From Ascidiella aspersa (Eukaryota), in NCBI GenBank assembly GCA_963924565.1, contig OZ004611.1:22878001-22942000 (forward strand): 64,000 nt of DNA, read 5' to 3'. The notes beneath the pieces were generated by a model. That model searched no databases. It saw only the letters and a program-made list of their open reading frames with translations, and was not told where the DNA came from. How positions within the stretch are numbered: position 1 is the stretch's first letter; each line of letters begins with the position of its first letter. Positions 3,019 to 64,000 of the stretch are shown here, piece by piece. The position numbers and the translations under genes were made by a program.

Positions 3019-4002
3019 TAGTGGTCTCCAACCTTTTTAATAAGCGACCCCAATTTATAATTTACATTGCGACCCCATTTTTTTTAGATAGAAATAAATA
3101 CTGTATATAGTGTATATAATAATGGTGGAACTAAGTAACAGGAGCAAATATGTGTAAAATATACACATTTCCAGAGAACTGTGGCTATATATGTGCACCA
3201 AAATTATTACTTTTAGGTAGTTTTATTTAGGTTATGAACTTAAATTTAGCACACGAACTGAAACAAAAAAATATTTTGTTTTAACAAGTCCGATGGTTGC
3301 GCTTGCATAATGTCCACCAGTTTTTGAAAACGCGGCTCCACTTTACATAAGCATAACGGTAATGCTCTACTTCCAAGCGATTTACGATGTTTCGTTTTTA
3401 ATATGATCAGTGCGCTAAATTTCGTTAAACAAAGATGTGTGGTTGAAAACGGAAAGAGTAGTAGACTCACAAAATTGGACAGAGTCGGGTAAGTTAGTTG
3501 CATAAAAGTCCAAAAATAAATATTTATTTGCTGAATTCTTTGTAAAATAGCAGCTCTTAAGAGCTAAAAATACCTATTAACAAAATACATAAATCGTACT
3601 AAAACAGTAGGAAACATATGTACACACATATATGTGTGTACATATGTTTCATTGTATTATGATATGATACTGGCGATCCCCTTCATTATGAAGTTGCTTG
3701 TACTAACAGATTGAGCAAGCATTGGCGTATGGTTGTTTCTCGACTCGTTCCCTTCTGAGCCTGCATAGCTCAGTTGGTAGAGCGACGGTCCCGGCTTGAC
3801 CGGAGGTCGTGAGTTCGAACCTCACTGCAGGCTAGTTGTTTTTCTAGTCTGCTCTGCTTGCATCATTGATCGACAGATTCGGTGAGTCTGCAATGGCTTT
3901 TCGGTGTACTAAAACAGTAGGAATGCGATAAGTTTGGGCGACCCCAGAAAAAATTTAGGGGACCCCACTTTGGAGTCGCGACCCACAGGTTGGAAACCAC
4001 TG
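3019..4002 (-). mobile_element. Non-autonomous hAT (Buster/Charlie-type) element retaining a transposase C-terminal fragment
   Basis: TIRs TAGTGGTCTCCAACC / GGTTGGAAACCACTG; perfect 8-bp TSD GCTTAAAC (3011-3018, 4003-4010). ORF 3503-3246 YPTLS..LLFPFSTTHLC..FSAL..LKTKHRKSL..LCLCKVEPRF resembles the hAT dimerisation region of ZBED5/SCAND3-type proteins. Confidence 0.85.
3759..3833 (+). tRNA. tRNA-like sequence (pseudo-tRNA or SINE head) with an aberrant anticodon loop
   Basis: Perfect acceptor stem GCCTGCA/TGCAGGC, D arm GCTC-AGTTGGTA-GAGC, T arm GTGAG-TTCGAAC-CTCAC, and a downstream T-run. The anticodon arm CGGTC-CCGGCTT-GACCG lacks U33 and purine-37. Confidence 0.7.
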
Positions 4003-7017: not shown

Positions 7018-10000
7018 TCACAATACGAACATGTACCGGGACACAAACGCTGCAAACTGGTAAATCAAAACGTACGTCAAAATAAATAAAATAATGCCGG
7101 GATTTAGCAAACGGCGGTTGTACAAATCGCGTCGCCTCCGTTTGATTTTCATCGCCGAAGTGGGAAAAGAACCGTTCTGGAAAAAGTAGCCCAGCAGTTG
7201 CTCTTTTTCCTCGTAGAGCTTGTACATCCATTGCGTTAAATGCCGCTCGCGTTCTTGACGGTTTTTCGAAACACTTAGCACTTCGCTAGCCGGGAATACC
7301 CTGAAATTAACACGAATAAATTTATTTTCAGGCCTATAAAACACAATGACCTATACTGTAAATCAATGCTGATGCCACCATAGAAAATAAAATCGACAAT
7401 TTTTCGAATGTTTGCTTAGCGTTTTAAATTTGATGAAAGTTTTGTCGTTCCACGCAAGAAACCAGTACGAACATACCGGTACTAAGAAACTTGCTCCAAC
7501 AGTTTTCAGCTGTTGAGAGAATATTGGGCTTGGGGCCTTAAAGCTGTACAACACCATCATTTAATTACTTCTTGAACCGTTTAATCACTTATTTATTCCT
7601 TAGTGTGTATGTGGGTGAAAGGGTCATAGGATTTATAAATCAAACGATTTATACGGGTTATATGAAAAGTTAGACTTAACTGACTATAAAATTTTTCATC
7701 CTTCGTGTCGCAATTTAAATGACAAAAATATTTACAAAACTTGCCTGTAATGTAGTTCAGTTTCTTGCACTCCATCCCATGCAAAGATGAACTTAAGTGG
7801 GGAGACTGGTGCTTTGTAGCCAATAGTTACGTCCACAATCCAACCTAACTTAATTGAATCTGAACACAAAAATGTTCGATTTAAAACGAGGAAAATTATT
7901 CAGACTGATCTGGTTTATCAAATATATATAAACCTACAGTTAGTCAATTAGTATATATACAAGAAAATAATATTTGCATAATTTTATGTGAAACGTATTA
8001 AAAATACCTTTCTTAGCATCCATGTCGTATCGATTAAGTGCGTTAATTATTGACTCCGCGGCGCCAACGTGTGGTAGCGTGACGTTGTTCAATATCGGAA
8101 GTCCGTTCTTTCTTGCGTATCTTCGTAAATAAACACAAATGACAACCCACAGTTAAAAGTGGAGTAACGCGAATATAGACCGAGTCATGTCTGTGGCGAG
8201 AAGTTAAGTAATTATCAGGTTTATTGCAAGATTTGATCTCGGGCGAGAGTGTGTGTAAAGTACACGCAAAGGTGAGTACGCCAAAGCGTTTGCAAAACTC
8301 TCTATAGTTTTTTTTCTTGTGCCTCATGCATCTATTTAAATCAAATATTATAAAATGTAATTAATCAATAAACAAAGCAACAAAATGTTTGTTACGTTTT
8401 ATAAAATGCAATATTCATTATAGCAGTTTGCTACCTCCTGTCATTGTCCCTCAACTCTTTGTGCCCCCTTACTCAAGTTTTGCGGAAAAAAAGATTTAGG
8501 CAATCGATAAAACTGTTGCTTTTTAAGGCGGTTTGCAGTAAGATTGCATGGAGCGTCACTGTTGCATTATGAGCAATATTTTTACAAGAGGCCACTCATT
8601 TAGAGATTTGCAATCGAAACATAAACGCAGCGGCCGAGTCACAGAAAAAAGCTTTACCTCTGGCTGCTTTCTTTTCGTTTATAGAGGAAGCCACCCTCGG
8701 GAAACAGGACGATCCACTTGTGCTTTCCCTCGACCACAAACTGGGTAACGTCCTTGTGAATTTGCACGCACGGGTCGTACTGCGGTCCTATAACGCTGGG
8801 CTGGCTTCTGTTTACCTACAAAGCAAAAATTATTCATTAAAAGAGCAAGGTTGGTCGGTATATTAAATGCCAGATGTCAAGCAGTAGTATCGAGTGTGAA
8901 AAACTAGGGCGATATAAGTGTAGATCCGATATCTAATCTATTTGGTTTTATGTTTTTAAAGTTATTTTTTTTTTTGAAAAATAGAATATTCCCAATATAA
9001 CTAAGTTTCAAAATCCCCACACATCTATTTGTCTTAGTCATCCGGAAAATGTTACGTGCACAAGTTTCGATCAATTTGCTTAATTGGCCATGATAATTAC
9101 GTCATATAGCATAGGTTCGTCAGTACTTTGCCTTACACATAGGGTGTCGTTATCGGAATAAAACAGAAAGTATCGGACAATTCTAATAGTCGGTTAGATT
9201 GTTAGCATGATTTAGTTCGAACGTGGATTTAGCTCCGTTTATAAGAGTGGCGTAAATGCTTTGTAAAGTTCATTAAAAAAATACCTATGTATTAACGGCC
9301 ACATCTTGCAACCTCCGAATCGTTTAACATAAAATAGTCATGTAAATGCTTAAAAAAATGGTCGCAACCTTTCGAACGAACGAGGTCCCGTGGCAGTAGC
9401 TGATAAATCCGAAGTGAATGTACTTGAACCACCATTCCATGATGAATGTAATTTTGTGAAGCACATTGCGATTCTGAAAGAAAAATAAAGCGCTGTTATA
9501 TTTTAAAATGGCTAACATAAACATTTGTTCATCAGGTGTTTTAATCAATATATACGTTTTTTTGACGCTTTTCGAAAAACGCTTGCGTAGCTTGCCTTTG
9601 TTATTCAGGTCTATTGTATATAGGACACATGTATTTGGTCACTTATGTATAAAACTAACGGTGGCCTTAGATTGGCTGAAAGCCAAAATGTTTATCGCAT
9701 GTACGATGTAGAATAAAGCAAATTTCAGTCGCATTTTTCTAACCGCTTGCCTAGATTACATTTCCTTTCATTGTTTTGCGTCGAGATAAACGCAGAGCTG
9801 CGCAACCTTAATCCACTTGCGGGACACAAACAAAGCTAAAACGATTTTGCAGCACACGTACGAAATGTATGTCGATCGACAATAGACAACTTGTTTTGGT
9901 ACAAACTAACGCCAGCCTTAGATTCGTATAAAGCTAAAATGTTTTATCGCTTGGACGATGAAGAATGTAGCTGTTTCTAAAAAATAACATTTTAGTCGCA

Positions 10001-12044
10001 GTTTTCTAACCGTTTGGCTATATATCAAGGGTGGCCAACACGCGGCTTTTTACCCAGTTTTGTGCGGCTCTTACGTTCATGTTGCACTTAGTTTTTTTTA
10101 ATGTTTCGATTTCGTTCGGTTGAGTTGTGGATTTTTGCTGGTTCCGACTCGGACGGTTTGCCTTAGGCCATTGTGTTATTGTAACATTTTTAAAACAAGA
10201 TAAACGACAAAAGTATGCTCAAATATTATTAATAAATGCCATTATATTGCGAAATGTGCGTCGCGTCTCCTTCTGAATTAAAATTTTGCATATTTAACCA
10301 AAAAAGCACGTTTTTTTGCGCATCGTGCGATCGCTTTGTGGCTGTGGTCAAGAAATGGAATGATAGGCTATTCTTTTTTCTATGTGTGAGGTGTGGCTCT
10401 TTGCGTTTAACCAAGTAAGAAATGCGGCTCTTGGTATCTGGCTGGTTGGCCACCTGTGCTATATACCATTGTTTCGTGTCGAGCTTAGCGCCAGGGTAAC
10501 CTCCTACTGTCATTTTACAGACTTTGATTCTTCTTTTTCAATGAACAGATAAAAACCAAAACGTTGAATAAACTTTAGGAACGATATAGTCTCAAACTCA
10601 AAGTAATGTTATAAGTTTTCTGATAGAACTCTATTATCATGATAGAACTCTCTTGCCATGAAAATATGTCTTGAAAAGCGTGTAATTTGACATCCTTGTG
10701 AAGCATTAGAGAACCACAAAAAATCGACATTTAAAAATTGTATCCCTATAAAAGTACGTACCTGAAATGCAGTAAGCAACAATGGAACGTCAATCATGTT
10801 CTGATGATTCGGCATTGCTAAAACCACATCGTCATCTGGAATTTTCGACAAGTCATCTCCGCTTTCATAAACTACAAAATGTTAGATGTTAATATACAGA
10901 CCGTTTAGAAAATATAGGTACAAAACATGAGGCACGATATATTTTTCGCCGGATGAACATAATATAAAATATATATTAGTTTTATCAGAAACAAAACCTT
11001 TCTTCTCGGTTGCAAATTTATTCACAAGTTTGGCCGAGAACAGCAGTTTTTTTAAGTTGTTTGGTTTATCAAACAGTGGGTCCAATGAGTCGCGAAAGCT
11101 ATTTCAGGTGGGTCGTAAAGCATTTCTAAATGTTACAGTTCTCTATTAGATCGGGAAATTATGCATTACCATTACCTAACATTTATGCATCAATATCACA
11201 AATACGTAACTATTAGATGTGTCGTGTCGCATTACCTATTTTAGTATGTACGCCAGTAGACGATGCAGGTTTTATGTAACTCAGATATTTGTTTCGTCAT
11301 ATTCATTGTGGGTCGCTAGTTTTGTTTTACATTCACATTATTGGCAGCACTGAAGAAAATCGACACTTACTGATTTGTCCCGGAAGGATTAGGTGTAGTG
11401 CCCCGAGTGCAACAGCGAACTCAAACAGTTTGCCTTCAAGCTTCCAGTACAGGTCGAACGAGAAAAGTCGGATGGGCTACAATAAAAAAACTGATCGCTA
11501 AACATTTGTATAAAAAACGCCTATATTGTATGAATATACGTAGTAAGAATAGCAAAGCCCATACAGGAATAAGTATTATTTTAAACGTTTATTTTACTAG
11601 TGTCTTACTACAACTTACAAACCATTATGCTCCACTGTATGAATACTTGCTTAAAAAATGTAAGCGCACTTTCTAAATATAGTATATAATTTACAACTTT
11701 TCGTTCGTTGTTTTTTTTTTAAATACAACAAGAAAACAGAAACACAAAACGCGCTTATCAGATTTATCTGCAATTTTGGCGGTTTCATTGATTTTAAAAA
11801 GATTAATAAGGATCAAGAATGTCGCATCAACATAAAGTACAAATTTTTTCGTAAGTAAAATCTTAACTAGAATGTTAATATACATTAGCGAAATAAACTA
11901 CTCGTATTACAAATGATATGCAAGTACTTTCAAATGACTTACCTGAAGCACTAGAAACCAGAAGAGATAAACGAAAGGACTAAGTATGTTTAACACTAAA
12001 TAAACGAAAACCAACGCCAACGCCGGAGTCCTTCCGAATATCAT
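7018..12044 (-). CDS. LPGAT1: Acyl-CoA:lysophosphatidylglycerol acyltransferase 1-like, 8 exons (12044-11943, 11476-11371, 10871-10762, 9473-9369, 8815-8658, 8120-8008, 7859-7745, 7300-7018), 363 aa
   Basis: The exons splice in frame (1092 nt). Acyltransferase motifs NHQNMID (HX4D) and WIVLFPEGGFL are present, along with LPGAT1-like segments FKYIHFGFISYCHG, NGLPILNNVTLP, WIVDVTIGY, HYRVFP and EKEQLLGYFFQNGSFP. N- and C-terminal hydrophobic helices. Confidence 0.92.
10026..10458. mobile_element. hAT-type MITE in an LPGAT1 intron
   Basis: Ends CAAGGGTGGCCAAC / GTTGGCCACCTGTG; TSD CTATATAT / CTATATAC. Confidence 0.7.
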
Positions 12045-34501: not shown

Positions 34502-35301
34502 TTAGTCATGGGGACATTGGTGTGACTTTACGCATCTGTTGCCATCCCAGAAGAGATCATTCGGACATACACAGCCGCTTACACATGGCGGTCTGTCTTG
34601 CTGACCCTGATCGCTTTGTGACGAATGCGAACCACGACCTGGGTAACCATATGGGCCGGTGTAGCGAGGTCCGGGGTAATAATACGGTCGCCGTCGTGGG
34701 TACAAGGCTCGTAGGAAAATCCACAACCTTGCGGCAAGTTTGAAGTTGATTGGTGGAAAGAGTGGGTCCCTAGGGGCTGGAGGGGCTGGAGGGGCGGGGG
34801 GACCGGGTGGGCTGTCAGCCCCTCTTTTCACTCTTGTAATGTGATCGTCTATATCGCTGCATTTTCGTCCTTCCGGCTTACATTGGCTGTATCGTTGGCC
34901 CCTGTCGCATTCTGAAAGACAATTAGACGCTTGTTTTTCGAAGCCGAAACCAGGTTTGTGATAGTAGAGACAACTCTGTTCTTAATAGCTTTCAAGAAGG
35001 GCTGGTAGCATGGAATCAGAGCCGATAACCGATGGTTGAAATATTACATTTGTACGTGATTTCAATAATGCCTTATTTTGTTATATTATAAGTCATGAGG
35101 TCGTTTAGTAACCGACGGCCGTCCTTTAAAACTAAAATATTTTACGTGAAATAAAGTCCAGGAAATGTTATATGGAACATCTTGAATAGCTATGACTGCA
35201 GTACCGTGATGAATTTCAACAAAACAAAACAATTTACCTGGATGAGCTTTGACATAATTTCCAATGAAGGCCAGCAACACAAAACAAAAAATCAAATTCA
35301 T
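34502..35301 (-). CDS. Split-TIL gene D: secreted 157-aa protein (exons 35301-35238, 34911-34502)
   Basis: MNLIFCFVLLAFIGNYVKAHP|ECDRGQRYSQCKPEGRKC...RVKRGADSPPGPPAPP...YPRRRPYYYPGPRY...CVSGCVCPNDLFWDGNRCVKSHQCPHD*. Confidence 0.88.
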
Positions 35302-36294: not shown

Positions 36295-39111
36295 GGGGAG
36301 ACCGGGGCGTAAAGTAACACGGGTCGATTGTAACACTCTAAATTGCGCCACCCATGGACACGCTGAAATCACGTGATTAACAATGCGCATGCGCCTTTCG
36401 GTTCATTTCCGCCATTGAAAGTTTGAGCAGGCTACGTGCAGTACAAACAAAGTTGTGGACAAAAACATATATTTCAGGTAAGAAAGTAAGTTTTTTTCTT
36501 TTTTTAGTTTTTGTTAGTGTTGTTTAACCATTTAACTTAAAAAATTGGAAAGGATACAATCGGATTTAGCAATTATTATAGTTTATTATTGCATACTTTA
36601 TGAACTAGCCAGTTGACTGGGCAAGTGGTGAACGAAGGCAATTAATGGCTGACATGGGCCTGGGTCGGTTGTAACAAAATTGACGGGGCTGGTTGTAACA
36701 TTTAAAAGGTGTTACAACTGACCCCGTCGAAACAGTATAATGTACTAAATCTTTAAATATTTTCAGCCATGGTGAGAAACTTTAAACGAAAAACTGACAG
36801 AGGGACTACGCCTGTGTCAGAACTTGCAAGAGCTGCCAACGATATGAAAAACCAAGGAAAATCTATTCGATCAGTAGCAAAAGAATATTCTATTTGCCAT
36901 GTCACGTTGTCTAGATTTTGTAAAGCAAAACAGAAGTTAGAAGATAGTGGTTCAAATGAATTGCCTTCTGTTGGTTACCGCAGTGCTACTCAAGTATTCA
37001 CGGAGTTGCAAGAAATGGAGTTGACAAAATATATCTTGATGTCAGCGGATGCTTATTACGGATTGTCTCCAAAAATGTAAGATATTACACTTACTTCATA
37101 TTGCTTTTGTAGAATCGGTGATATCATTTCTAAATCACATAAATTATAAGTAGGCTGTACTTGAAATTTTGGAAATCAAGTTTAATTTTGTTTAGGTCCG
37201 AGAATTCGCTTACGAACTTGCAGTGAAATACAAGTGCAATATTTGGTTTACTGGCTGCATCAAAAGAAACTCAACGGTGCAGAAAGCAACAAGTCTGTCA
37301 AGGGCTACGAGTTTTAACAAACCCAATGTCGGTGTGTTTTTTTCCAAACTAGATGGCGTGATATCAAACCATAAGTTGAATGGTAACGATATTTGGAATG
37401 TCGACGAAACAGGTATTACCACTGTTCAAGTTCCTAACCGTGTTATCGCAAAACGAGGGTAAAACAGGTCGGTGCTTTCACCTCAGGTGAGAGGGCCACG
37501 TTAGTCACTCTTGCTTGTGCAATAAACGCCATCGGAAATACAATACCGCCCATGTTTGTTTTTCCTCGGTCTCGATATGCCGATCACTTTGTTCGAGATG
37601 GTCCCCATGGCTGCATAGGATCCGGAAACAAATCCGGATGGATGCAACAGGACAACTTTCTTATTTTCCTTAAACGCTTTGTTAGCTACACTAAAGTCAC
37701 AGTTGAACGAAAGGTTTTGCTTTTGCTCGACAATCATAGCTCCCACCGTACAATTGCAGCCATAGATTATTGTAAGCAAAATGGTGTCATACTTCTTTCG
37801 TTTCCTCCTCACTGCAGCCACAAACTTCAGCCGCTCGATCGTAATGTTTATGGACCTCTAAAAAAATTTGTTAATGGTGCCAGTGACGCTTGGATAAAAA
37901 TGAACCCCGGAAAAACCATGACGATTTATAATATTCCTGGGCTTGTGAATACCACTCTTCCACTGGCAACAACGCCAAATAACATTCAGTCAGGATTCCG
38001 TTGCACAGGAATCTGTCCCTTCAACTCCGATATATTTGAAGAACACAAATTTTCTCCTTCACAGGTGACTGATCGGCCTGACCTAGCTCTCCTAGACTCC
38101 TCTTTATAGGCTCAACATGAAGAAGAACCTTCATCGTCTGGCAATTTGCCTCCAGCTCCCCTTCAAACATCTTTTTTGACTCAAGATGCTAAATAAGCTT
38201 CATCGTCTGGCAATTTGCCTCCAGCTCCCATTGGGACAGCTTTGTTGTCTCAACATGGTCTGCCACCAGCTCTTCTGTCTTCGCATTCCACAGGATCGGA
38301 CTTCTTACGTCAAAGTCCATCAACTTCTTCCGCATGCGAACCTCATTCTAACTTTAGTCCTGAAGAACTTCGTCCATTGCCAAAAGCACCATCAAGAAAA
38401 TAGTTGTATCCAAACGAAAAAAGATGCAAGCAGAAATTTTAACGGATATACGCCAGTCAAGAAAGCAATGGAAGAGGCGGAGAGACAGAAGCCTGCTAAA
38501 GCTAAAAGAAAAATAATTCTGCCCAAAAAGTCAACAAAATAAATTTAAACAACCCAACAACAAGCAAACTGATTCTTCGGACGACGAAGAAAATTACTGT
38601 TTGGTATGTATGGAACATTTCCAAAATTCTAAAACAAAAGAGGTTTGGATTCAATGTGTCAGATGTCACTTGTGGGCCCACAAAGCGTGCACCCCCGACA
38701 TGAATTATTCGTATTTATGTCACAACTGCGACTCGGATGATGAAAACTTTAAGCCATTTGCATCGTAGGCTAACACTGTCTGTTGCATTTACCTTTTGAA
38801 TTTGACATTTCGTTGAAATATAACAACAAAAATAAGTTTCCAATATGTTTATGCGGTTGTTTTAATTTGTTACAATTTGCCCCATCAGGTGTTACAATCG
38901 ACCCGTGTACGGGGCACGTTGTACCACATTTTTTGTCTTTTTTAAAAGGTCATAACTTTTCCGGTGAACAAAATATTTTTATAGAACCTGTGGCAACTTA
39001 TTGCTAAAAGATTGAATTTTTGTATGGCGAAGGTTTTATTTTATTTATTCAAAAGATAAACAAGTTATTAGATAATATGTCAAAATTGTATCAACACGCC
39101 CCGGTCTCCCC
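36295..39111 (+). mobile_element. Degenerate full-length pogo-superfamily (DD35D, Fot/Passer-like) DNA transposon
   Basis: TIRs GGGGAGACCGGGGCGT / ACGCCCCGGTCTCCCC flanked by TA. N-terminal psq-type HTH (KSIRSVAKEYSICHVTL); catalytic motifs WNVDETG, LLLLDNHSSH and LQPLD with 35 residues between D2 and D3; C-terminal PHD-like finger. Confidence 0.9.
36769..38770 (+). pseudogene. pogo transposase (HTH-DDE_1-PHD), intron-containing and disrupted
   Basis: GTAAG..TTTAG intron at ~37077-37195; frameshift at ~37460 (KRG/KQVG); in-frame TAG at 38107 and further lesions downstream. Confidence 0.85.
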
Positions 39112-42651: not shown

Positions 42652-44017
42652 TCAACACTCTATTCGGCTGACGCAGTGACCGTTTTTCCAGTAATAACCC
42701 CGTATGCAATCACAGCCTGGGTTACAACCACTTTGATATGAAGATGGACCACTAGGGTAACCACTTTGATATGAAGATGAACCACTAGGGTAACCGCTTT
42801 GGGATGAATAACTTGGGTAACCGCTTTGATAATAACTACTAGGGTAACCGCTTTGTGGGTAATAGGAACCACTCGGGTAACCGCTGTAAGGCGAGTAGTA
42901 AGAGCCGCTCGGGTAACCGCTGTAGGACGACGGGTAGTAGTAAGGGCCGCGTCGGTTGGACGGGTAGTAGCTGTAGGGGTAACGTCTCCGGTAGAAGTAT
43001 GGCCTGCTGTAGTGAGAAAATAAGGCTAATCTCGTCAAAGCCGAAAGCCCAGAATTGCGAGGTCGGTCGCCGTCTCCATTTCCACCCCTCCCTCCGCTCC
43101 TTCCTCCATCTCTCCCTCCGCTCCTCCCTCCATCTCTCCCTCCGCTCCTCCCTCCGTCTCTCCCTCCGCTCCTCCCTCCATCTCTCCCTCCACTCCTACC
43201 TCCGCTCCTCCCTCCATCTCTCCCTCCGCTCCTACCACCACTTCTCCCTCCATCTCCCCCTCCGCTCCTACCACCACTTCTCCCTCCGCTCCTACCACCA
43301 CCTCTTCCTCCTCCGTCGCCATCCGATTGCCTTCTCACTCTCGAATGTGCGGGTGACGAACAGTAGGTTGGTGACGGCTTGCAATCCAACCATTCCTGGT
43401 TAGGGCCGCACTCTGCAACAGCAATAAGAATAAACTATGTGGATTGACCAGTTCACTGGACGCTGGAAGGCATCATCGGGCTTAATGGTACCCGTCGACC
43501 TCTTAAGGGTTCTTACTGTTGGCCAGTATATACGCGACTACGCATTGGCAACGAATTCCACTTACGCACATTGAACATGTGTGTAAATGTTTTAGTCGTA
43601 ATCAGCAGAGATTTTTAATTGTTTTAGTGTTGTTATCGCCAACATTATGACCTGGTATTGAATTTACCATACCACTATGACCTAATAACATGCATTCAAA
43701 ACTTTAAAAATTGTATATAATTTGAAGAATAAACAATAAATATAACATTTCATTTCAAACATTTTTCCAAACATACTGACATATTTTTCTAAATTACTGA
43801 CATTTTATAGTAGTGGGGGCTTTATCTATTCTGTGTCTTAAAACAAAAAAACTTTTTGTAACTGGTTGAAATGCCGAACCATTATCAATTTTTTGTTGGA
43901 AAGGGTTTGAAAATTCAACAGCATTGCTATTGTACAAAATAAAAACAATTTACCTTGGTGGGCGATTGCATATTTTCCGAGCAAAGCCAGTAAAACACAC
44001 AAATATAGCAAATTCAT
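42652..44017 (-). CDS. Split-TIL gene E: secreted 274-aa protein with a GGRS/GGRD repeat and Tyr/Ser/Gly/Pro repeats (exons 44017-43954, 43412-42652)
   Basis: MNLLYLCVLLALLGKYAIAHQ|ECGPNQEWLDCKPSPTYC...RVRR-Q...(GGRS/D)n...(YxSGYPS)n...CNPGCDCIRGYYWKNGHCVSRIEC*. Confidence 0.88.
42725..42935 (-). repeat. Coding repeat YxSGYPS(G/S/Y) in gene E
   Basis: GGGTAACC(G/A)CT recurs seven times on the + strand. Confidence 0.85.
43084..43313 (-). repeat. 12-bp-based coding repeat (GGRS/GGRD) in gene E
   Basis: CTCCCTCCGCTCCT / CTCCCTCCATCT units in tandem. Confidence 0.9.
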
Positions 44018-49763: not shown

Positions 49764-52259
49764 CAAAAGCCAATAACACCTACGCTTACCCTCCCAGGTT
49801 CATTTAGGTTAATTTAATAAAACGATTATCGTCATGTTTCGGGTACGTGATATGCCACAACAAAATGCAAATAAGCAAAATGAAATCCAACAAGCAAAGC
49901 AGTATACAAATTTAAACCCCTTCACGTTTGACAGCGATAAACATATTCAAAAATCTTGAAGTTTCGTAAATCTCTAGGGTTTGAAATTTACATACCGAAA
50001 GACAAAAAGGTACAGTTTACTTAGATGTAAGAGTTTATGTAAATTGATGTAATCATAATCGCGAACCTTAGTAAACAAGACCTTTTTGGGGGTATTTTTG
50101 GGTAACAGCTAGAAGTGGAGAGTCCGCACACGAAAGCGGTTAAGTTGTTTCGAGGTTTAACGTTTTGAGGACAAAAGCCTGTGAAAACATTTACAGAATA
50201 TTCTGTCGGTGTATTCTATAAAATGTCAAAACACTCAGTTAAAAAATTATGTCTAAGACATAAAAATTTGCCAATTTCGCCTTTGTGGCACTTTGTTAAA
50301 AAACAGAAGATTCCGATTTTATTAAGCAATACGTGATTCCGATATGGCCTTACATGACAAAAACATTCGAAGCGGTCGAGAGCTTGAAGGTAAAACTGAA
50401 ATGAAATTAGAAATTGTGGTGCTGTTAAGGTTGCAATTTTGTGCTCATTTGGCCTAATTAGCAAGCTGACAGCTGCGGCAATCAGCAAAACACGCCAAGA
50501 TTAAAAAGCACTTTAAATCTGCATTTTGCCAAGACCACATAAGTGGATAAAAACAGTTATTATTAAAAATGTAGTAACGCATTTAAAACTTTAACCGCTT
50601 AAGGCGCTTTCCTGACATTCTTAGTTTTACATTGAATTATTTACAAATTATTTAGTGCATGACTTTAATTAGTATAGCCTATATGCAAAATTAGGAAAAT
50701 GTTCAAAACAACTAAGCTGTTTATTGTTTTCATGACTTTTCTTTGCAACGAATAGGTGTTATAAATAAAACAAACTTATGTCAGAAAAACACTATGAGAA
50801 CTTGGGAACGCTGCTGCTGTTTTATGTCAGTACGGTACATTAATGAAATTGCTGCTGCAACTACCGCTATACGTCGCTGCCGAGTTGTTTCCATCATAAA
50901 GCTACTTACAGGAAGTACCTTGTTGTGGTTGTACTTTTATCCGGATAGCGGTTAATAGGTTACCTGAAGGTTTTTTTGCTGTGTGATATGCGGTTATAAT
51001 TTTACCGGTCAACCAGATAACATAAGTAGCCTAACGTTTTCAGTTCATCCTTCTATATTTTCGGCCCGTTTTTACCAAAGTTCCGTCAGGTGAATGTTTG
51101 CCTGCCAGGGACAGTGCCAACAGTTTTTATGTGGAACAGTAGGGGCTCCCAAAATCTCGCAGTTAAACAACAGTGATATTAGCGGTAAATAAACTTGAAC
51201 AGCTTACATCATTCAAACATCATATCAAGCCGTTAATCTTGTCATTGTAATTCAATAAGAAACACTAAGGGTCGCGTTCACAAGATTCGACAATTGATGC
51301 CTTGTGTGCTTCATAAGGAGGCAAACATTTAAAATATGTGTTTTATTCGTTTTTGTGGCATGTTTAAAGTTAACTGTGTTACTGTTGGTTAATTTTCCAA
51401 TCGTCTATTTGAGTAAATTACGAAAGATCGAGAGGCTAAAAACATATTTTCATTATCCGGTTAACCGGTTAGGTTAAAGTCGAATATTCCAATATATCCC
51501 TTATCCGGATACTAAAATTGGTTAATATCCGAACCCACCCTAAAACTCAGTGGTTCTCAACCGGGGTGCCGCGGCACCTCAGTGTGTCATTTTTAATCCC
51601 CAAGGGTGCCGCGACATATTTTGGGAATCTTCAAGAATCATTTTCAACTCGTACAAATTTTGGTGTGAGATTAGAGTGGAATAAATCCAATTATGTTGTG
51701 TAGAGTTGATGTGTGTTGTTTCAGTTCTGTTTATTATGACATCTAGTGAATTACCTACGGAAAAATCTTATAGGGGTTCCGCAATCTATTTAATATTTCT
51801 GAATGGTGCCGCTAGCACTAAAAGGTTGTGAAACACTGCTATAACCTGTACAGTCGGGATGCACCAGAAAGCGATAACTTGTGCTTCTTCTATAGCCTTA
51901 AGGAAACAAACAACAAAAAGTAATGTCAAGTTTTGAAGAAACATAAAAAGTTTATACTAATTGAAAAGTACTGAAGGATTCAATATGTACACACAATCGC
52001 ACAAATATGCCAAATTCACGCAACACGCGCACAGCTGCACATCGAACACTAATTAATTATCCAAGTAACGTTTAAGAGAAATACGAGTCAAAAATCGTTT
52101 CGGAGCGATATGGGTCTAAGTCAAAAATCGATTTTGTTCAGGAGATCAAACAGACCTCACCAAGTGAAAAATCTCCAAAGTTGTGCCAAAGATTTACTCA
52201 AATCCACACAATTTGTTCAGTAAGCCAGTTATCTTTTAGTGTAGCCTAATCATTTGGTC

Positions 52260-55200
52260 TCGGCATTTAGAACATTTCACGATACTTAAAAAATTGGAGA
52301 AAGCAAATAATGTTTAAAGCGTTCCATACAGATTCATGCCGAGTTTGCATACAGTAGGCCAGAATTACATTGGCCGTAACAACAGTTTAATTATGCTCGT
52401 TCCCGTAGGCGTAAAAAACATCCGCAATGACCGAGCACAAATTCCTGCCACTAAACCGGTAAAGAGAACTTCCACCTAAGAATCAATGTTTATGACCACA
52501 TTGCATGCGAGCTGATACTAGCTGACAGGCTGTTTTGTGATTTGCGCGTTAAGCTTCAGTTGTCGAATGCAACAACTTAAACGATCCTAATCTCTGTATG
52601 TTGCCTAATTGCGTTCGCAACTATCCTATTCAACACAACACTTTTTAACAGAAAATCAGGGAGTAGAACCGAACCCAAACTTTAAAAACCGATTTTTTGA
52701 ACCCTAACTTTTATGGACCTTTTTTTAACAAGAATTTTTGAACCGATTCCTTTGGAAGTTTGTCAAACCTAATGCATAGGTTGCTTTCGATTCCAAGCAA
52801 GTGATTTCGTCATTGAGCTGGTTTGTCTTGATGTTTTACGCAACATGTAAAACAACCTTAATAACGGCAACCGCAAAAAACATTAAAAAGGAGAAGATAT
52901 CGCTTAATATTTGTCTGTTTAAATGCATTTGTTTTTGGTTCTCATGCATTTAGTTTAAAATCTCGGTCCACTTTGAGGAAAACAACTTTAAATAGGCTAA
53001 TTACCTAATTTTGTGTAGAGGCTATTCCAAGTTCGACAAATTAAAGAGAGAAAACGGTGTTTCAAGCGATCCATACAGATTAATTCCGAATTTGCATACA
53101 GTAGGCCAGAATAACATTGGGCGCAACAAGAGTTTAATTATGCTCATTCCCGTAGGCGTAATAAACATCCACCATGACAGAGCACAAATTCCTGCCACGA
53201 AACAACTAAAGGGAACTTCCACCTAAGAATCAGTTTAAGTTTATCGACCACATTGCATGCGAGCTGATACTTGTTGACAGGTTATTTGTGATTTGCGCGT
53301 TAAGCTTCAGTTGTCGAATACAACAACTTCGTTCGCAACTATCCTATTCAACACGACACTTTTTAACAGAAAATCACGGAGTAGAACCGAACCAGAACTT
53401 TGTAAACCGATATTTTGAACCCGAACTTCTATGGACCGTTTTTTTCCCAAGACTTTGTGAACCGATTCCTTTGGAAGTTTGTCAAACTCCATGCATAGGT
53501 TGCTTTCGATTCCAAGCAAGTGATTTCGTCATTGAACTGGTTTGTCTTGATGTTTTACGCAACATGTAAAACAACCTTAATAACGGCAACCGCAAAAAAC
53601 ATTAAAAAGGAGAAGATATCGCTTAATATTTGTCTGTTTAAAAGCATTTGTTTTTGGTTCTCATGGATTTAGTTTAAAATCTCGGTCCACTTTGAGGAAA
53701 ACAACTTTAAATAGGCTAATTACCTAATTTTGTGTAGAGGCTATTCCAAGTTCGACAAATTTGGAGAAAGCAAATAATGTTTCAAGCGTTGTATACAGAT
53801 TAATGCCGAATTTGCATACAGTAGGCCAGAATAACATTGGGCGCAACAAGAGTTTAATTATGCTCGTTCCCGTAGGCGTAATAAACATCCGCCATGACAG
53901 AGCACAAATTCCTGCCACGAAATAACTAAAGGGAACTTCAACCTAAGAAGAATCAGCTTAAGTTTATCGACCACATTGCATGCGAGCTGATACTTGCTGA
54001 CAGGTTATTTGTGATTTGCGCGTTAAGCTTCAGTTGTCGAATACAACAACTTAAACGATCCTAATCTCTGTATGTAGCCTAATTGCGTTCGCAACTATCC
54101 TATTCAAGACAACACTTTTTAACAGAAAATCAGGGAGTAGAACCAAACCCGAACTTTATAAACCGATATTTTGAACCCGAACTTCTATGGACCGTTTTTT
54201 TTCCAAGACTTTGTGAACCGATTCCTTTGGAAGTTTGTCAAACCTAATGCATAGGTTGCTTTCGATTTCAAGCAAGTGATTTCGTCATTGAGCTGGTTTG
54301 TCTTGATGTTTTACGCAACATGTAAAACAACCTTAATAACGGCAACCGCAAAAAACATTAAAAAGGAGAAGATATCGCTTAATATTTGTCTGTTTAAAAG
54401 CATTTGTTTTTGGTTCTCATGCATTTAGTTTAGAATCTCGGTCCACTTTGTGGAAAACAACTTTAAATAGGCTAATTCCCTAATTTTGTGCAGAGGCTAT
54501 TCCAAGTTCGAAAGAACAAAATTGCTTGTCAAAGTATTAGGAGACTACAAAATATACCACGTTCGGAGAAATTAAGCTTTAATTCATTCAACAAAAGAAT
54601 TTTGCAGTGAGGTCCACCTAGTTTCGGTTTTGCCAAAACACTAAGTAACTGCATTTAAACATTTGACCGTTTAAGGCGCTTTCCTGGTATTCTTAAATTT
54701 ACATTAATTTATTTACATTTTATAGTGCATGAATTTAATTAGTAGATAAAATTAGGAAAATATTCACAACAAACTAATCTGTTTCTCATTCCCATATGGA
54801 CATCCATTGGTAACGCCTATTTTTCATAATAAAAAAGTGATGTCAAACAAACACTATAAGAATTGGGGAACGCAGCTGCTGTTTTAGGTCAGTAACTTAC
54901 TCATTAAATCGCTGCTGCAACTACCGCTATACGTCGCTGCCGAGTTTTTCCAATATTAAGCCTACTCGAAAACAAGTATAGAGTTGACTGTCATAGTTTT
55001 CCAACCTGAGAAGAAATGAAACAGACAACGTGAAGCAATGTGAAATTTGATAAACGAACTTAGGCCTACCCAGTTATGCACGAACAGCTGGACGAACAAT
55101 AATTAATTATCCAAGTAACGTTTTAAAGAAATATGGGTCGAAAATTGTTTCGAAGCAAATAAATAAAACAAAAAATCGAACCTGTTCAGCAAAGACAACC

Positions 55201-55730
55201 GATGTGAAAAGGTAAAAAAATGTTATGCTAAAGATTTACTCGCAAAGTTGTGCCAAAAGATTTTCTCCAATCTACACAATTTGTTTAGCAAGCCATAGTT
55301 AACTTTCAGTGTATTCCTTGGGTCTCGGCATGTGGAAAAATTCACGATAATTAAAAATTTGGAGAAAGCAAATAATGTTTCAAGCGTTGCATACAGATTA
55401 ATGCCGAATTTGCATACAGTAGGTCAGAATTACATTGGGCGCAACAAGAGTTTAATTATGCTCATTCCCGTAGGCGTAAGAAACATCCGCCATGACAGAG
55501 CACAAATTCCTGCCACGAAATAACTAAAGGGAACTTCAACCTAAGAAGAATCAGCTTAAGTTTATCGACCACATTGCATGCGAGCTGATAGTTGCTGACA
55601 GGTTATTTGTGATTTGCGCGTTAAAGTTCAGTTGTCGAATACCACAACTTAAACGATCCTAATCTCTGTATGTAGCCTAATTGCGTTCGCAATTATCCGC
55701 TTCAACACAACACATTTTGAACAGAAAATC
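52260..55730. repeat. Tandem array of a ~0.72-0.76 kb unit (three copies 52260-54510 plus a partial copy ~55320-55730) within a ~4 kb segmental duplication
   Basis: TTTGCATACAGTAGG(C/T)CAGAAT and GAGCACAAATTCCTGCCAC occur four times. 50575-50890 matches 54648-54950, and ~52050-52260 matches ~55100-55330. Confidence 0.9.
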
Positions 55731-58105: not shown

Positions 58106-60392
58106 CCCTGGCCCATATTAAAATACCACGGAAATCGTAATAAAATCAGTAGAAAATTTATATGTAAAACTTATATACTGATTTGACTTAACCCATCCTA
58201 AATTATCAAATTTGGGGCAATCACTATCAACTTGCAGAAATTGCATTTAAAATAGGTTGCTAAAAGCAATGTTAATTTAATTAGGGAAGTTGTCCTTTTT
58301 TCACATTTTTGTCCTTGATTGTACGATTGTATTAATCTTGTATTGAATTCAATGGTTGAGTGCTTCAGTTCGTTTTTATTGTAGTTGGATTTGGCTTTGG
58401 CCGGTCAGTGAGCAGTCAAAATATTCCGAACAGCCGTGGTGCACTATATGGTTACAGCTTCTTTTTTTGGGAGGGGGGGGGGAGGAAGGGTTTGGGGGGG
58501 CATGTATTCTTTTCATAGATGGTGTCAAAAAGTTACATCTAAACGTGACGTCATCAAAAGTAATCCTATGAACACATCACAGTTCGTTTATTTGGTTAAA
58601 GTTTTTTAGATTGAACAGGTGGTCCTTTAATACAAAAGCTGTGTAATCGATTTCGCGCCAAACGTAAAAAGGCCTTTATATCGTTTAACTTGTACACACT
58701 TTTATTTTCGATGTTACAATAGGACGTACGACGTCCTACAGCTTCTGTGTTGCATATTGTCATTGTGCTTTTTGCGCCTTGTTCGAATCTAAACCGTGTA
58801 TATAATATTGATGTTATTGTATTGTAACACCATAAAACAAGATAATAAACGCACTGTATGCTTACGGCTTCTTGATTCTGTGCCGCCATCGGGCGGTGAG
58901 GTCAATAAACTTCACAACTTATCTGACCAAAAAAATCAAATTGATGAATGCCATTGTATCGAGTAATACGCGAATTATGATCGTTAGCTCATGGCGCCGC
59001 GGATCCTGCGTAATTAAACAATTTTTATTCTCGAATGAATTTGTAACTGTTTTTTCAGCGGCCTATATTTGTGCATATGAACAGTGTCTCAAGATTACTG
59101 TTTCAAGTTAGGAAGTAACAATCTGACGTTATATCTGAACACAATCTTCTAGTGTAAATATTAAAAACTATTTTTATATAGTTTAAATGTGATGATCGCC
59201 TCTTAAGATCTTTCAAAGTTAACGTCACATAAAAAAGTTCGAAATGTCAAGGAAATCCTAAAGTTATTGCCTATGTCCAAAATGCCTGCTCTCGTGTGCA
59301 TTTTCGTCTTAATTCTTTTAATTACACCGACAAGTCATCTTTAAAAAAAAGGACAGTACAAAGTCTCACACTTGGCAAGGTCTCGCGGCAAATCAGTGTA
59401 AACCGCTGCACACCGGTTGCTGAGTACTGATTTACAGTATTGACACGAGCACAATCCTCTGTTAAATATTTTATGCTGGTAAAAATTTCACATGTAACGT
59501 TTTAAATAAATTTGTCACGTTTTTTAATAAAATAAACTTTGGCGCGCTTATCTCTACGGTTAGTAAAGTAAACCAATCATGCAAAAAATCACCTTTTTAA
59601 ACTTCACACTATACTACGTTTCAAACCAAACTAAATTATTCGTATGCTGGCTGCTACCATAAAAAACATAAAATCGTTAATTTTAGTAAACAGTCTCAAA
59701 TTAGGTCAAATCCGCTTGGCAAAGCACTGTCTACAATCTAATTAGAATCCTACAAAAGTGATAAATTGATAACCTAAGACAAGGATATAACCGATGTATG
59801 TTTAAGTAAAAACGCTCGCCACCGGTCCTAAAGGTTTTACGTCACAAATAGGTTCAAGGGTATAAAGTGTTATAATTTGCCGATACTTGTTTGTCAGTCT
59901 GCGCCAAAAAGTATAGGCCTTTTCGCGTTACGCACTCAATAACTTTTATTTAAGATTCCAAAGGGGTTAGGCATGGAGAAAACAATAGGAAAGTAGACAT
60001 GCCACACAAACACATTTTTCCGAAACATATGTCTGCGGAATATTGAAAGACGTCCGTGTAAACTCGAATTAAAATCTAAGCTATAAGAATGGAACTAAGT
60101 GGTAAGAAGCGTCTTGTTAAGCATGTACACGATTACAGCAAGTTGCTGGTAAACAGTTATGGGTGACCTATAAGATGTACAATACGGTAAGAATTAAGGC
60201 TGAGAATAAATGATACGTGCATGAAAACGCTTTAATATAAGCATGAATAGCTGATACAGTTAAAATTAATAAATGTACTTTTGAACATTATGAAAGCGTC
60301 TAAAAACTAACAGTACACTACAGACTCCGTAACAATATAAGATTCACATGTGTTAAACAAATACGAAATAGTCATTAGACCACGTTGTAGGT

Positions 60393-60711: not shown

Positions 60712-63539
60712 CTGTAGGCTGTGCAAATGACAATTGTAGATATAAAAACATTGATTTTAACAAAGATAAGTCATGGTAGGATCAAATAAAATTGGACGCA
60801 AATTGAAAGAACTCAGTCGAATTTAAACAAAATTCTGTGTAAGACCAAAAATTTACCATGTTGTACCTCTGTAAAAAATTAAATACTAGTGTTTCTTTAT
60901 AGCATGTTTCGGAATTGTATTTTTGACGTTTGTGCGTACATTTACAATCCACATGATATAAGGCTATTGTACTGTATTGTAAGTAACATATTAAAACAAG
61001 ACAATCAACGCACTAACTTTTTTGATTTCATTTTTCGAAAGCGATTAGACATGTATAGAAACAAAGGAAAGAAGATCTGAAAAGCCCATTAGGAACTGCA
61101 CGCAAAAATTCCGGTGTCGATTCGCATAAACAAACCAAACATGCTGTTCGGAAAAAATGAAAAGCATTATATTTTGGGCTAACATTTTACGACAATGCTC
61201 ATTAACCAGATTTAAACGAGATGTGAACTTATTAAAAAAAACAGTTTTTTAAAACAACTGTTATAAAGCTTTTTTAGTTAAAAATTGTACTATGTGAGAC
61301 TTCCAATGTATTTTTTACTTCTATGTTTTACTATAAATGTTAACCGTTAAAATGACAACATAGATAACAAACCATGGCGAAAATTCACATACTAATTTGG
61401 TATCGCACAGGTACCGATACTATCACTTGTCTTTGCGTGTTGACTCAGCTCGATATTATCGGACATCCCTATATTGTTGTATGAGTTTTTACAGCAACTA
61501 ACAAAGAATAATTTTCGGGACTGGGTACGGGTACAGTTTTCCAGTGGTGTGCAATTGTACAACTATATAAACTTATCGCGCAAATTAATATGTGTTAATT
61601 TGGTTTCATTTGTGAAAAATATTACCTTATTAGAATAAATTATCACTATCTAGGCTCCATAGCTAAATAACTACAACCAAATCAGCGCAAGACAGAATGC
61701 ATTGTTTTGCCTTGTTTAAAAAGTTAGGTACGTCAGTAGTGCAAAATACCTTACAGATTTACGTAAACAGCAAAAACTTGTACAAACTAGATAAGTTGAA
61801 AGTAATGTCGTTATGTAAAGAGTTTTACAGTGCAAGGCTATGGACACATAGAAAAGTTGAAGATATTTTCTTTGGGCTGAACAAATTTCCTTGAATTGAC
61901 TAAAACATGATACAAATGTTCGCGCGGCTGTTTATGTATTTAGGTATAGTTAAAGTACGCAAAAAATCTAGTGTATGAGGCACGCCCTTCCAGGATCCTC
62001 GCATGGCGGCAAACAATTGCTTAACTATATGGAGGATCCAATCAAGTGTAGTAGATGAACTTGAGAAACTGCTTTTATAACTAAAACAAGTCTAGGAAGA
62101 GTATACAGTAAGTGTTAACTTACACAAACAGTTAAACCAATTAATAAGTGTAGCCTACTTTTGAACATTATGCAAATGTCAAAACTATCACACAACAAAA
62201 TCCCTAACCGAGATGCAGATGTGTTGAACAAATGCGTGCAGAAACAACCAGAAATTTTCTGTAGATTTATAGGGATGTTTATTTAAAAGGGTCGCGAGAA
62301 ATTTTAAGGATAACGCGAGAAATTTTAAGGATGGTTTTAGCTCCGATATCAATCAATTCAAGGCTTTCTGTAAGAACCAGGCAAGACAAGATAACACTAG
62401 GATGTTTTTCGTGGATGCTGCAACATATCGGGAATACCGCACTACAAGAAATGCATTTTACCATTTTTTTAATTCCCTCGATTTTAAAATTTTCCACAAT
62501 GTTGTTCTATAGCTATATGCACTCCTGTTTAATGATTTTATTTTGAAATAGTCAGGCTCTACCAATTACAATTTTTGTAGCTATAAAAATATGGTTTTTA
62601 ACCAGGGAGTCGAACCGTTTGACTTTTCCGGTTCATGTTCGGTTGGGGTTCAAGGATTTTTTCGGAATACGGTTCAGTTCCGGTTTCGATTCGGAGCAAT
62701 TTAAAAGTTCCGGTTCAGCTTCGGTTCGACCATCGTTATTTCAAAACCGGTTCATTAAGTTCCGGTTCGGATATAATATAAGTTGCGTTAATCTAAAAAT
62801 GTGTTTCAACAAATGTAGAGAATAATCTTTGAATAGTAAGTCATCCAATTAAACGTGACGTATTAAAAAAACAGCAACTCATTATTGAAATAAACCAAAA
62901 TACGTTATGGTAGGATCAATAAGTAAAATTATATTCAAATTCAAGTACCTCAGTCGAATTGAAACAAAATTCTATGTAAGACTAAAAGTTGACCATGTTG
63001 TACGCTGGAACAAAATAAAAAACAGGTGTTTATTTTCTTTTTGTACTGGAATTGTAATTTTTTAAGTTGGCGCGAACTTATACATTGTAAGTAATAAGTT
63101 AAATTAATAAGGCTATTGTATTGTAATTAACATCTTAAAAACAGATAATAAACACACCGACTTTTTTATTGCATTTTTAAAAGCGGTTACACAAGTAGAA
63201 ACAAAGAAAGACGCATATGACGCACAAACGTAGTTTGAGACACGCACGTATGCGGTTTCTAGTAAGAAGTCAATGCAAATTTAAATTTCATTAAGTTTAA
63301 GGAATGGAATTAAATGGGTAAGAAGCGTTTTGTTAAGCATGTACAAAATTTAGCAGGTGCGGTTTTGGCTCCTAATGAAATAAACACAGAGGATCTCCCG
63401 CCAAGGCGCGGCCCTCTAAGAAATAAAAGCTTTGCTCTATACGATTTAGATGCGTGAGAAATGGTGGGGTTTTTTAGATGCGTGAGAATAAAATTTGGAT
63501 GGAAGCATGAACAACTATAAGTAAAGCAATTTATGATGA

Positions 63540-63748
63540 CTAGTAATGACCACGGTTATTGTAGTAGTTATAGTACGGGTAACCGTAGTAGCTTCTGTAG
63601 TATCTTCGAAACGGATTTCGGTATCTGCCATAGCGCCCATAGCGCCCATAGCCATATCGTCCTCGGTTATAACCTCCATAGCCATAGCCATAGCCATAGC
63701 CGTAGCTTCTTTTCACTATTGCATGATCCGCATTGTTTTCGATAGACG
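63540..63748 (-). CDS. Terminal exon of a Tyr/Gly/Arg-rich peptide precursor; signal exon presumed beyond the right edge
   Basis: Acceptor TTTTCGTTCCAG (phase 1), then SIENNADHAIVKR-SYGYGYGYGYGGYNRGRYGYGRYGRYGRYRNPFRRYYRSYYGYPYYNYYNNRGHY*. Confidence 0.75.
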
Positions 63749-64000
63749 CTGGAACGAAAAGAAAATATTTAACCTCTGCATTAAAGGAAATCCCACCGTT
63801 GTTTAAAGCGAATATCAACTGACCACAAAATAGCACACAAATATAAGTGTTGGGTTTAACACCACTTTGAAAAAGGGTCGTTTAAAATGCTCGTTTCGAT
63901 TATTGCAAATTTAGTTGCGTAATTGAGTCAGTAATTTATTGGACTGTTTTTTCTGCAAAAAATGGCGAAGCAAATCAGCAATTTAAAGTAATAGCTAAAT

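Follow-up and report, generated by a model that had tools for sequence, protein, structure and literature searches.

A likely spliced gene for a probably secreted tyrosine-, glycine- and arginine-rich peptide

The far end of the 64 000-nt stretch of DNA analysed here (the window) holds a short exon of unusual composition, and it raises two questions: does the exon belong to a real gene, and what would the product do? An earlier note had described a 55-residue peptide with 21 Tyr, 13 Gly and 10 Arg, free of acidic residues and Cys, and had likened it to mussel foot protein 3 (Mfp-3), a protein rich in Gly, Tyr, Arg and Asn. The last coding exon is on the minus strand (63748-63540) and is entered in phase 1. 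It follows the 3' part of a phase-1 intron (63749..64000, minus), in which a run of pyrimidines precedes the AG acceptor (63750-63749); the intron donor and the likely signal-peptide exon lie outside the window, past 64000, which is upstream on this strand. The exon translates into 13 residues ending in I-V-K-R, then the 55-residue peptide and a stop. The remainder of the pro-piece (63714..63748) has His at P6, Ile at P4 and Val at P3, the Lys-Arg dibasic site (63708..63713) is a predicted convertase cut, the peptide occupies 63543..63707 and the TAG stop codon 63540..63542, all on the minus strand. The spacer had been called acidic; the VKR motif is there, but the acidity is mild, with two acidic residues among the 13 within the window (4/16 when the spliced upstream part is included).

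A recount gave the same composition on the minus strand, in full Y21 G13 R10 N5 S2 P2 F1 H1, and no Asp, Glu, Cys or Lys. Tyrosine thus makes up 38% of the peptide and aromatics 40%, and Leu, Ile and Val are absent from the mature part. The calculated mass is 6.97 kDa, the pI 9.9 and the computed charge at pH 7 about +9.5. The first half is repetitive, and Tandem Repeats Finder detects both of the arrays that had been noticed by eye, (YG)n at 63676-63706 (period 6, 5.2 copies) and (GRY)n at 63628-63652 (period 9, 2.8 copies). The second half contains four Tyr-Tyr pairs; the peptide also has an internal Arg-Arg and ends in His-Tyr. Against a background of 4.0% Tyr (the six-frame mean of the window), the binomial chance of at least 21 Tyr in 55 residues is about 1e-15. 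Such a count is reached in two of the roughly 127 700 55-codon windows, both at the peptide exon, and the exon ranks top in Tyr content among the 1160 stop-to-stop open reading frames (ORFs) ranked. Tyr is encoded by 11 TAC and 10 TAT codons, and the Gly and Arg codons are mixed too; since the C-terminal half also lies outside both arrays, the sequence is not merely a microsatellite. AlphaFold2, run on the single sequence, returned coil across the mature part with a pLDDT of 50.8, a value too low to warrant a fold search and consistent with a mature peptide that is likely unstructured. An Rfam scan of the window found no RNA family at the exon.

Three public runs from one study (X1, X2 and X3) were compared with the window over 62500-64000, leaving out 62908-63009, where X3 has no cover. 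Their contigs carry no information on strand, ends or level, and depth was not taken as expression. The X1 contig is identical to the window over 62863-64000, reads across the acceptor and on into the intron, and extends 1213 nt past 64000; X1 may be the source of the window sequence itself. X2 represents a second haplotype and also continues past the acceptor into the intron. A 646-nt contig of X3 spans 63149-63750 and follows the genomic sequence up to precisely the AG acceptor, where it ends in 38 loose nucleotides, and a separate X3 contig (63747-63874) retains the intron. Read by hand, 30 letters of the loose end give L-L-V-Q-F-V-F-A-E-E in the frame of the peptide and with no stop, and the loose end finishes in an exon-type AAG. 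Up to Ala, all but one of the eight residues are hydrophobic; Val stands at -3 and Ala at -1, and two acidic residues follow. Signal cleavage has its preferences at -3 and -1, and on that basis the upstream stretch is likely to be the end of a signal exon of which the last 10 residues are covered, although the loose end, being rich in T, has the look of a splice-acceptor tract too and there is no Met within the covered part. A signal exon ending here would give a pro-piece of 16 residues, four of them acidic. We infer that X3 is RNA and that its 646-nt contig is the spliced form. The earlier note had made its reading depend on a signal exon or transcript, and the X3 contig does join the acceptor to a signal-like stretch.

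The differences between haplotypes speak for the reading frame. In the 3' untranslated region (UTR), the 646-nt contig has seven indels of 1, 5, 4, 1, 1, 1 and 13 nt, none a multiple of three. In the coding part it has 12 additional nucleotides (two extra YG pairs) and lacks 18, a net change of -6 nt, which leaves the frame unchanged and shortens the peptide of the second haplotype to 53 residues. The 18 missing nucleotides were taken from dips in depth (6+12 in X3, 10+8 in X2) because repeat rows had been dropped; with them the gap total of 56 is fully accounted for (602-7-18+19+12 = 608 = 646-38). The comparison lists 40 of 78 substitutions and 12 of 23 indels, and 20 of the 23 substitutions of the contig were placed. 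In the Tyr frame, the four codons with listed substitutions show Ser-Asn, Ala-Ser and two silent changes, versus four replacements and no silent change in the shifted, Met-rich frame. The acceptor join and the in-frame haplotype change together argue that this is likely a real gene of signal, pro-piece, Lys-Arg and peptide, in other words a transcribed and spliced gene for a secreted prepropeptide.

Within the joined X3 contig, the 3'UTR covers 63149..63539 (minus). An AATAAA at 63170-63165, 16 nt ahead of the end of that contig, points only weakly to a poly(A) site; a second X3 contig extends to 63046, and another AATAAA lies at 63034-63029. Three minus-strand relics suggest an earlier local duplication. 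One (60750..61072, 73% identity) copies the distal 3'UTR and downstream DNA, another (59944..60143, 69%) part of the 3'UTR, and a short third (58743..58854) copies the 3'UTR end with a score of 69 compared with 37.8 +/- 4.7 in shuffles; all three lack a coding exon. No degenerate coding paralogue was found beside them within the window. A high-copy interspersed repeat (62596-62892) lies just beyond the 3' end of the gene and has another copy at 2119-2382.

The same strand carries a set of split-TIL genes, four of them intact (at 42.6, 34.5, 26.5 and 19.9 kb) and one broken (near 30.7 kb), and the earlier note had suggested that the peptide might be a member of their system without the scaffold. 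The nearest (42652..44017, minus; signal exon 44017-43954, main exon 43415-42652) lies 19.5 kb from the peptide gene, carries a Gly/Ser/Tyr/Arg insert behind R-V-R-R and is possibly a distant relative. The signal exons of the intact genes (44017-43954, 35301-35238, 27535-27472 and 21192-21126, minus) have 21-22 codons, end in Ala-His-x and are followed by a phase-1 GTAA(A/T)TTG donor and introns of 324-586 nt. The register of Ala-x-x with a phase-1 intron is found in all four and in the loose end of X3, a layout that is common among secreted proteins. Over the last 31 nt, the loose end matches the four signal exons at 17, 13, 15 and 14 positions by hand count, as against 20, 22, 16, 22, 14 and 17 between one TIL exon and another.

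At the processing site, all four TIL exons have the furin-type R-x-K/R-R and the peptide gene has I-V-K-R, its Ile codon being one change away from an Arg codon; without Arg at P4, the site departs from the furin consensus that those exons share. Comparison of the DNA before the dibasic codons with the four TIL genes gave anchored scores of 6, 6, 4 and 1. A score of 6 equals what the 42-kb TIL gene reaches against two of its paralogues and is obtained by 1 of 1004 arbitrary dibasic sites; given Arg-Val, 1.3% reach 6 and 12% reach 4. The test was post hoc and the four TIL genes are not independent of each other. Intron register and pre-dibasic DNA show a modest likeness, at p of about 0.01 to 0.05. 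Aligned to the TIL inserts, the peptide scores no better than composition-preserving shuffles (p 0.22, 0.87, 0.95 and 0.35), whereas among the inserts themselves four of six pairs do (p<=0.001); their Tyr content is 4-13% as opposed to 38%. A blastn comparison of the peptide locus with every TIL locus of the window found no similarity, and the TIL cysteine halves are absent from the peptide gene, which has no Cys and no TIL match in Pfam. The peptide gene has in common with the split-TIL genes the strand, the phase-1 register, a His...Val-Lys/Arg-Arg region with its dibasic site and a Tyr/Arg-bearing low-complexity segment after the site; it differs in the missing furin Arg, the insert that does not align, the lack of a Cys scaffold and the distance. 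Because the score test was post hoc and the TIL genes are related, common ancestry of the peptide gene with the split-TIL genes is held, on these sequence comparisons, to be a real possibility that stops short of probable. A wider proposal is doubtful: the peptide gene would be the free-standing form of a cassette also found inside split-TIL genes, so that one family would supply Tyr-rich tanning peptides both on their own and attached to a disulfide scaffold, and would at the same time be an ascidian DOPA-peptide gene. The cassette as read would comprise a signal exon, a His-x-x-Val-dibasic site and a Tyr/Arg-rich segment.

Several other features of the window deserve mention. The broken split-TIL copy (~31890-30704, minus) has a frameshifted signal exon and several stops in its main exon, one of them in the dibasic site, and over its 3' part it shares 93% identity with the 26.5-kb gene. 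The 19.9-kb split-TIL exon, with an insert rich in His/Ser/Pro, may splice onto two intact TIL-like exons (20573-16405, minus), at 18.5 kb (Pfam TIL, E 2.5e-5) and 16.5 kb (E 0.002), to give a multi-domain product. The inserts at 42652-43415 and 34502-34914 (minus) contain Tyr-Tyr-Tyr behind Pro; in its unmodified form this is the template of tunichromes An/Pm, and it is absent from the 55-residue peptide. Just ahead of the TIL start codons at 44017, 35301 and ~31890 (minus), within roughly 30-50 nt, lie a pyrimidine tract and CAG, which suggest a trans-splice acceptor or an intron in the 5'UTR. Between two split-TIL genes lies a decayed DDE transposase (36757-38542, plus; Pfam DDE_1, E 1.5e-17), and downstream of the cluster is a multi-exon acyltransferase gene (7021-10881, minus; Pfam Acyltransf_C, E 4.9e-11), which we take to be LPGAT1-like. 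Together with the introns and the TIL genes, this gene suits an invertebrate animal as host. A split-TIL query had no match among 76 candidates and none among 228 pattern matches, and an acyltransferase exon had none among 83 candidates and drew only ESM Atlas rows below 0.85. The window also contains a tRNA (3759-3833, plus; Rfam RF00005, 55 bits) and a tandem array (52028-55730) of ~750-nt units that are 81-96% identical and have no long ORF.

Searches for relatives of the peptide, all of them weakened by its low complexity, gave little. A homologue search over 1224 candidates returned four matches, all with E of at least 1.9 and sharing only YG/GRY repeats. There were no matches at E<=0.001 among 1 835 955 588 sequence representatives, none in the 24 736 families of Pfam and no usable one in the ESM Atlas; a PDB search gave a single match (E 1.8), judged to be chance, and in metagenomes 604 pattern matches were found, none of them confirmed. 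The literature searched, which lay mostly outside subscription journals and was queried with exact peptide motifs as well, contained no such gene and no split TIL in ascidians. By sequence comparison the peptide appears to be an orphan without a detectable relative.

What, then, might it do? The reading we tentatively prefer, though it falls somewhat short of probable, is that of a secreted, KR-cut Tyr peptide whose oxidised tyrosines would be cross-linked, hardening or sealing the outer coat or a wound of an invertebrate. The precursor would consist of a signal, a short acidic pro-piece, Lys-Arg and the cationic peptide, and would be exported. The cut at Lys-Arg would be made in secretory granules by a PC1/3- or PC2-type convertase and not by furin, an assignment that follows the preferences of these three enzymes. 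Until cleavage the acidic pro-piece may mask the positive charge of the peptide; once free, Arg could bind an anionic or sulfated matrix, and Arg and Tyr could promote self-association. Oxidation of Tyr to DOPA-quinone or dityrosine would then yield a cured, tanned extracellular material. Support for this function comes by analogy, from the granule-stored DOPA peptides and other DOPA peptides of tunicates and from the cationic Gly/Tyr-rich glue proteins described below. Among the window ORFs inspected, a non-systematic selection, none was recognised as a tyrosinase or peroxidase gene.

Against this coat or wound function stand the lack of a homologue to anchor it, the chance that the tunicate analogies do not carry over to this host, the different make-up of the holdfast peptides of Halocynthia roretzi (small at 1.5-2 kDa, with much Glu/Gln, Ser and Gly, versus an Arg-rich peptide of 7 kDa here) and the anionic pro-piece before a cationic peptide, which is typical of antimicrobial precursors (PMC10608444). 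The last point belongs to a rival that is rather unlikely, yet the most serious: the pro-piece would mask the charge of a cationic antimicrobial peptide, and the KR cut would free a +10 aromatic product, with or without DOPA, that binds and damages microbial surfaces. Neutralising anionic pro-pieces are indeed common in marine invertebrate precursors (PMC10608444), Gly/Tyr-rich nematode peptides are induced by infection and include the antifungal NLP-31 (PMC2453101), styelin D offers a precedent (PMC3039461), and the neighbours on the same strand are TIL-domain genes. The peptide, however, has neither aliphatics nor an amphipathic pattern, is 40% aromatic and shows no homology to any such peptide; the nematode genes occur in clusters, and here the window contains no second coding copy. 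The cross-linking reading leaves room for antimicrobial activity on the side. That the peptide instead acts as an Mfp-3-like interfacial wet adhesive from an attachment organ, with DOPA beside Arg displacing surface cations, is unlikely. Its mass and pI lie in the Mfp-3 range, many Tyr adjoin Arg, and the allelic polymorphism would fit; but Mfp-3 is described as non-repetitive (PMC9999432), and this reading was graded low because known ascidian adhesives differ, being large vWA/EGF/VWC proteins where studied recombinantly (PMC12817120) or small DOPA holdfast peptides (PMC13079984).

The remaining alternatives question the product itself. Cleavage of a polyprotein at internal Arg or Arg-Arg into Tyr-Tyr oligopeptides, destined for tunichrome- or plicatamide-like catechols, would use the four Tyr-Tyr pairs, the internal RR and the C-terminal Tyr, and would suit a class whose biosynthesis is listed as unidentified (PMC10880069). 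The absence of GYY, LYY, YYY and YYGPY, the templates in a table of PMC3039461, weighs against it, and we regard it as improbable. Only slightly less so is a non-secreted product: a larger protein of the RNA-binding or condensate type that stays inside the cell and ends in this low-complexity Tyr/Gly/Arg stretch, with KR incidental. RNA-binding proteins often carry such Y/G/R tails, and the upstream exon is covered for only 40 nt, 30 of them read; what is read, however, has the hydrophobic run, the Val and Ala at -3 and -1 and the register of the four TIL signal exons. Finally, the stretch could be non-coding in the Tyr frame, whether as microsatellite-rich DNA, transcribed or silent, or because a shifted Met/Ala/Thr-rich frame is the coding one. 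Two short tandem arrays do lie inside the exon, the shifted frame offers an ORF of 60 codons that begins with Met, and a net change that keeps the frame has one chance in three. Yet the acceptor join leaves the Tyr frame open and puts two stops in the shifted one, and the mixed codons, the Tyr outside the arrays and the pattern of silent changes led us to reject both a coding role for the shifted frame and an origin from microsatellites alone; non-coding status is very improbable.

Cationic secreted peptides rich in Gly and Tyr have evolved repeatedly, which makes the kind a known one. The 38% Tyr of this peptide nevertheless exceeds the DOPA content listed for any Mfp (up to 30 mol%; PMC9999432). 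It is short enough to synthesise, so that adhesive, coacervating, cross-linking and antimicrobial behaviour can be tested directly. If the host is an ascidian, the gene would represent a cloned DOPA/TOPA-type polypeptide, a kind known mostly from extracts, and would give a handle on the biosynthesis of a DOPA peptide class for which that step is listed as unidentified (PMC10880069). If the signal exon proved homologous to those of the split-TIL genes, a cassette would have moved between a free and a scaffold-tethered form.

Among known systems, tunicate DOPA peptides have been linked to tunic formation, wound sealing and defence (PMC3039461, PMC10531651). In H. roretzi, DOPA peptides stored in granules become cross-linked, once secreted, within the protein-rich cuticle of the holdfast; they are rich in Glu/Gln, Ser and Gly, with ~50 mol% catechol (PMC13079984). 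The peptide described here has no Glu/Gln and 18% Arg. It shares a high content of Tyr-derived residues with the ascidian DOPA/TOPA peptides as a group (holdfast peptides, tunichromes, plicatamide, styelin D and ferreascidin), most of which have 3-10 residues or 1.5-2 kDa and none of which matches it in sequence. By inspection, none of the four tunichrome templates tabulated in PMC3039461 occurs in it, and tunichromes are among the dehydro-peptides of the biosynthetic list in PMC10880069. Tunichrome-type peptides carry a C-terminal dehydro-DOPA-amine; the last residue encoded here is Tyr. Plicatamide ends in His-dehydrodopamine, and styelin D is a DOPA-bearing ascidian antimicrobial (PMC3039461). 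A C-terminal His with a Tyr-derived residue there parallels the His-Tyr here, a weak likeness because 38% of the peptide is Tyr.

Outside the tunicates, the NLP/caenacin peptides of Caenorhabditis elegans are Gly/Tyr-rich, epidermal and infection-induced, and synthetic NLP-31 is antifungal (PMC2453101). The present peptide resembles NLP-29, NLP-31 and the caenacins as a small Gly/Tyr-rich peptide, but their genes are clustered, whereas here there is one coding copy in the window, with a pro-piece and KR and without homology. Gly/Tyr-rich cationic DOPA proteins form both mussel plaque and sandcastle-worm cement, and the worm proteins Pc-1 and Pc-2 are polycationic, Gly/Tyr-rich, stored in granules and cured by catechol oxidase (PMC9999432). 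Pc-1 and Pc-2 are rich in Lys/His, and the peptide bears Arg and has no Lys. They are also larger than this peptide. For Mfp-3, 5-7.5 kDa, a pI of 8-10, 5-20 mol% DOPA, polymorphism, disorder and a non-repetitive sequence are given (PMC9999432). Hydroxyarginine and a place at the plaque interface further mark Mfp-3. The proposed likeness to Mfp-3 therefore holds for mass and pI, and both are basic and polymorphic; it fails for the tandem (YG)n/(GRY)n repeats, the 38% Tyr and the pro-piece with KR, and no Mfp-3 homology was detected in 24 736 Pfam families or, at E<=0.001, in 1.84 billion representatives, searches whose power is lowered by low complexity. The peptide would be a convergent look-alike of the mussel glue proteins, standing outside their family.
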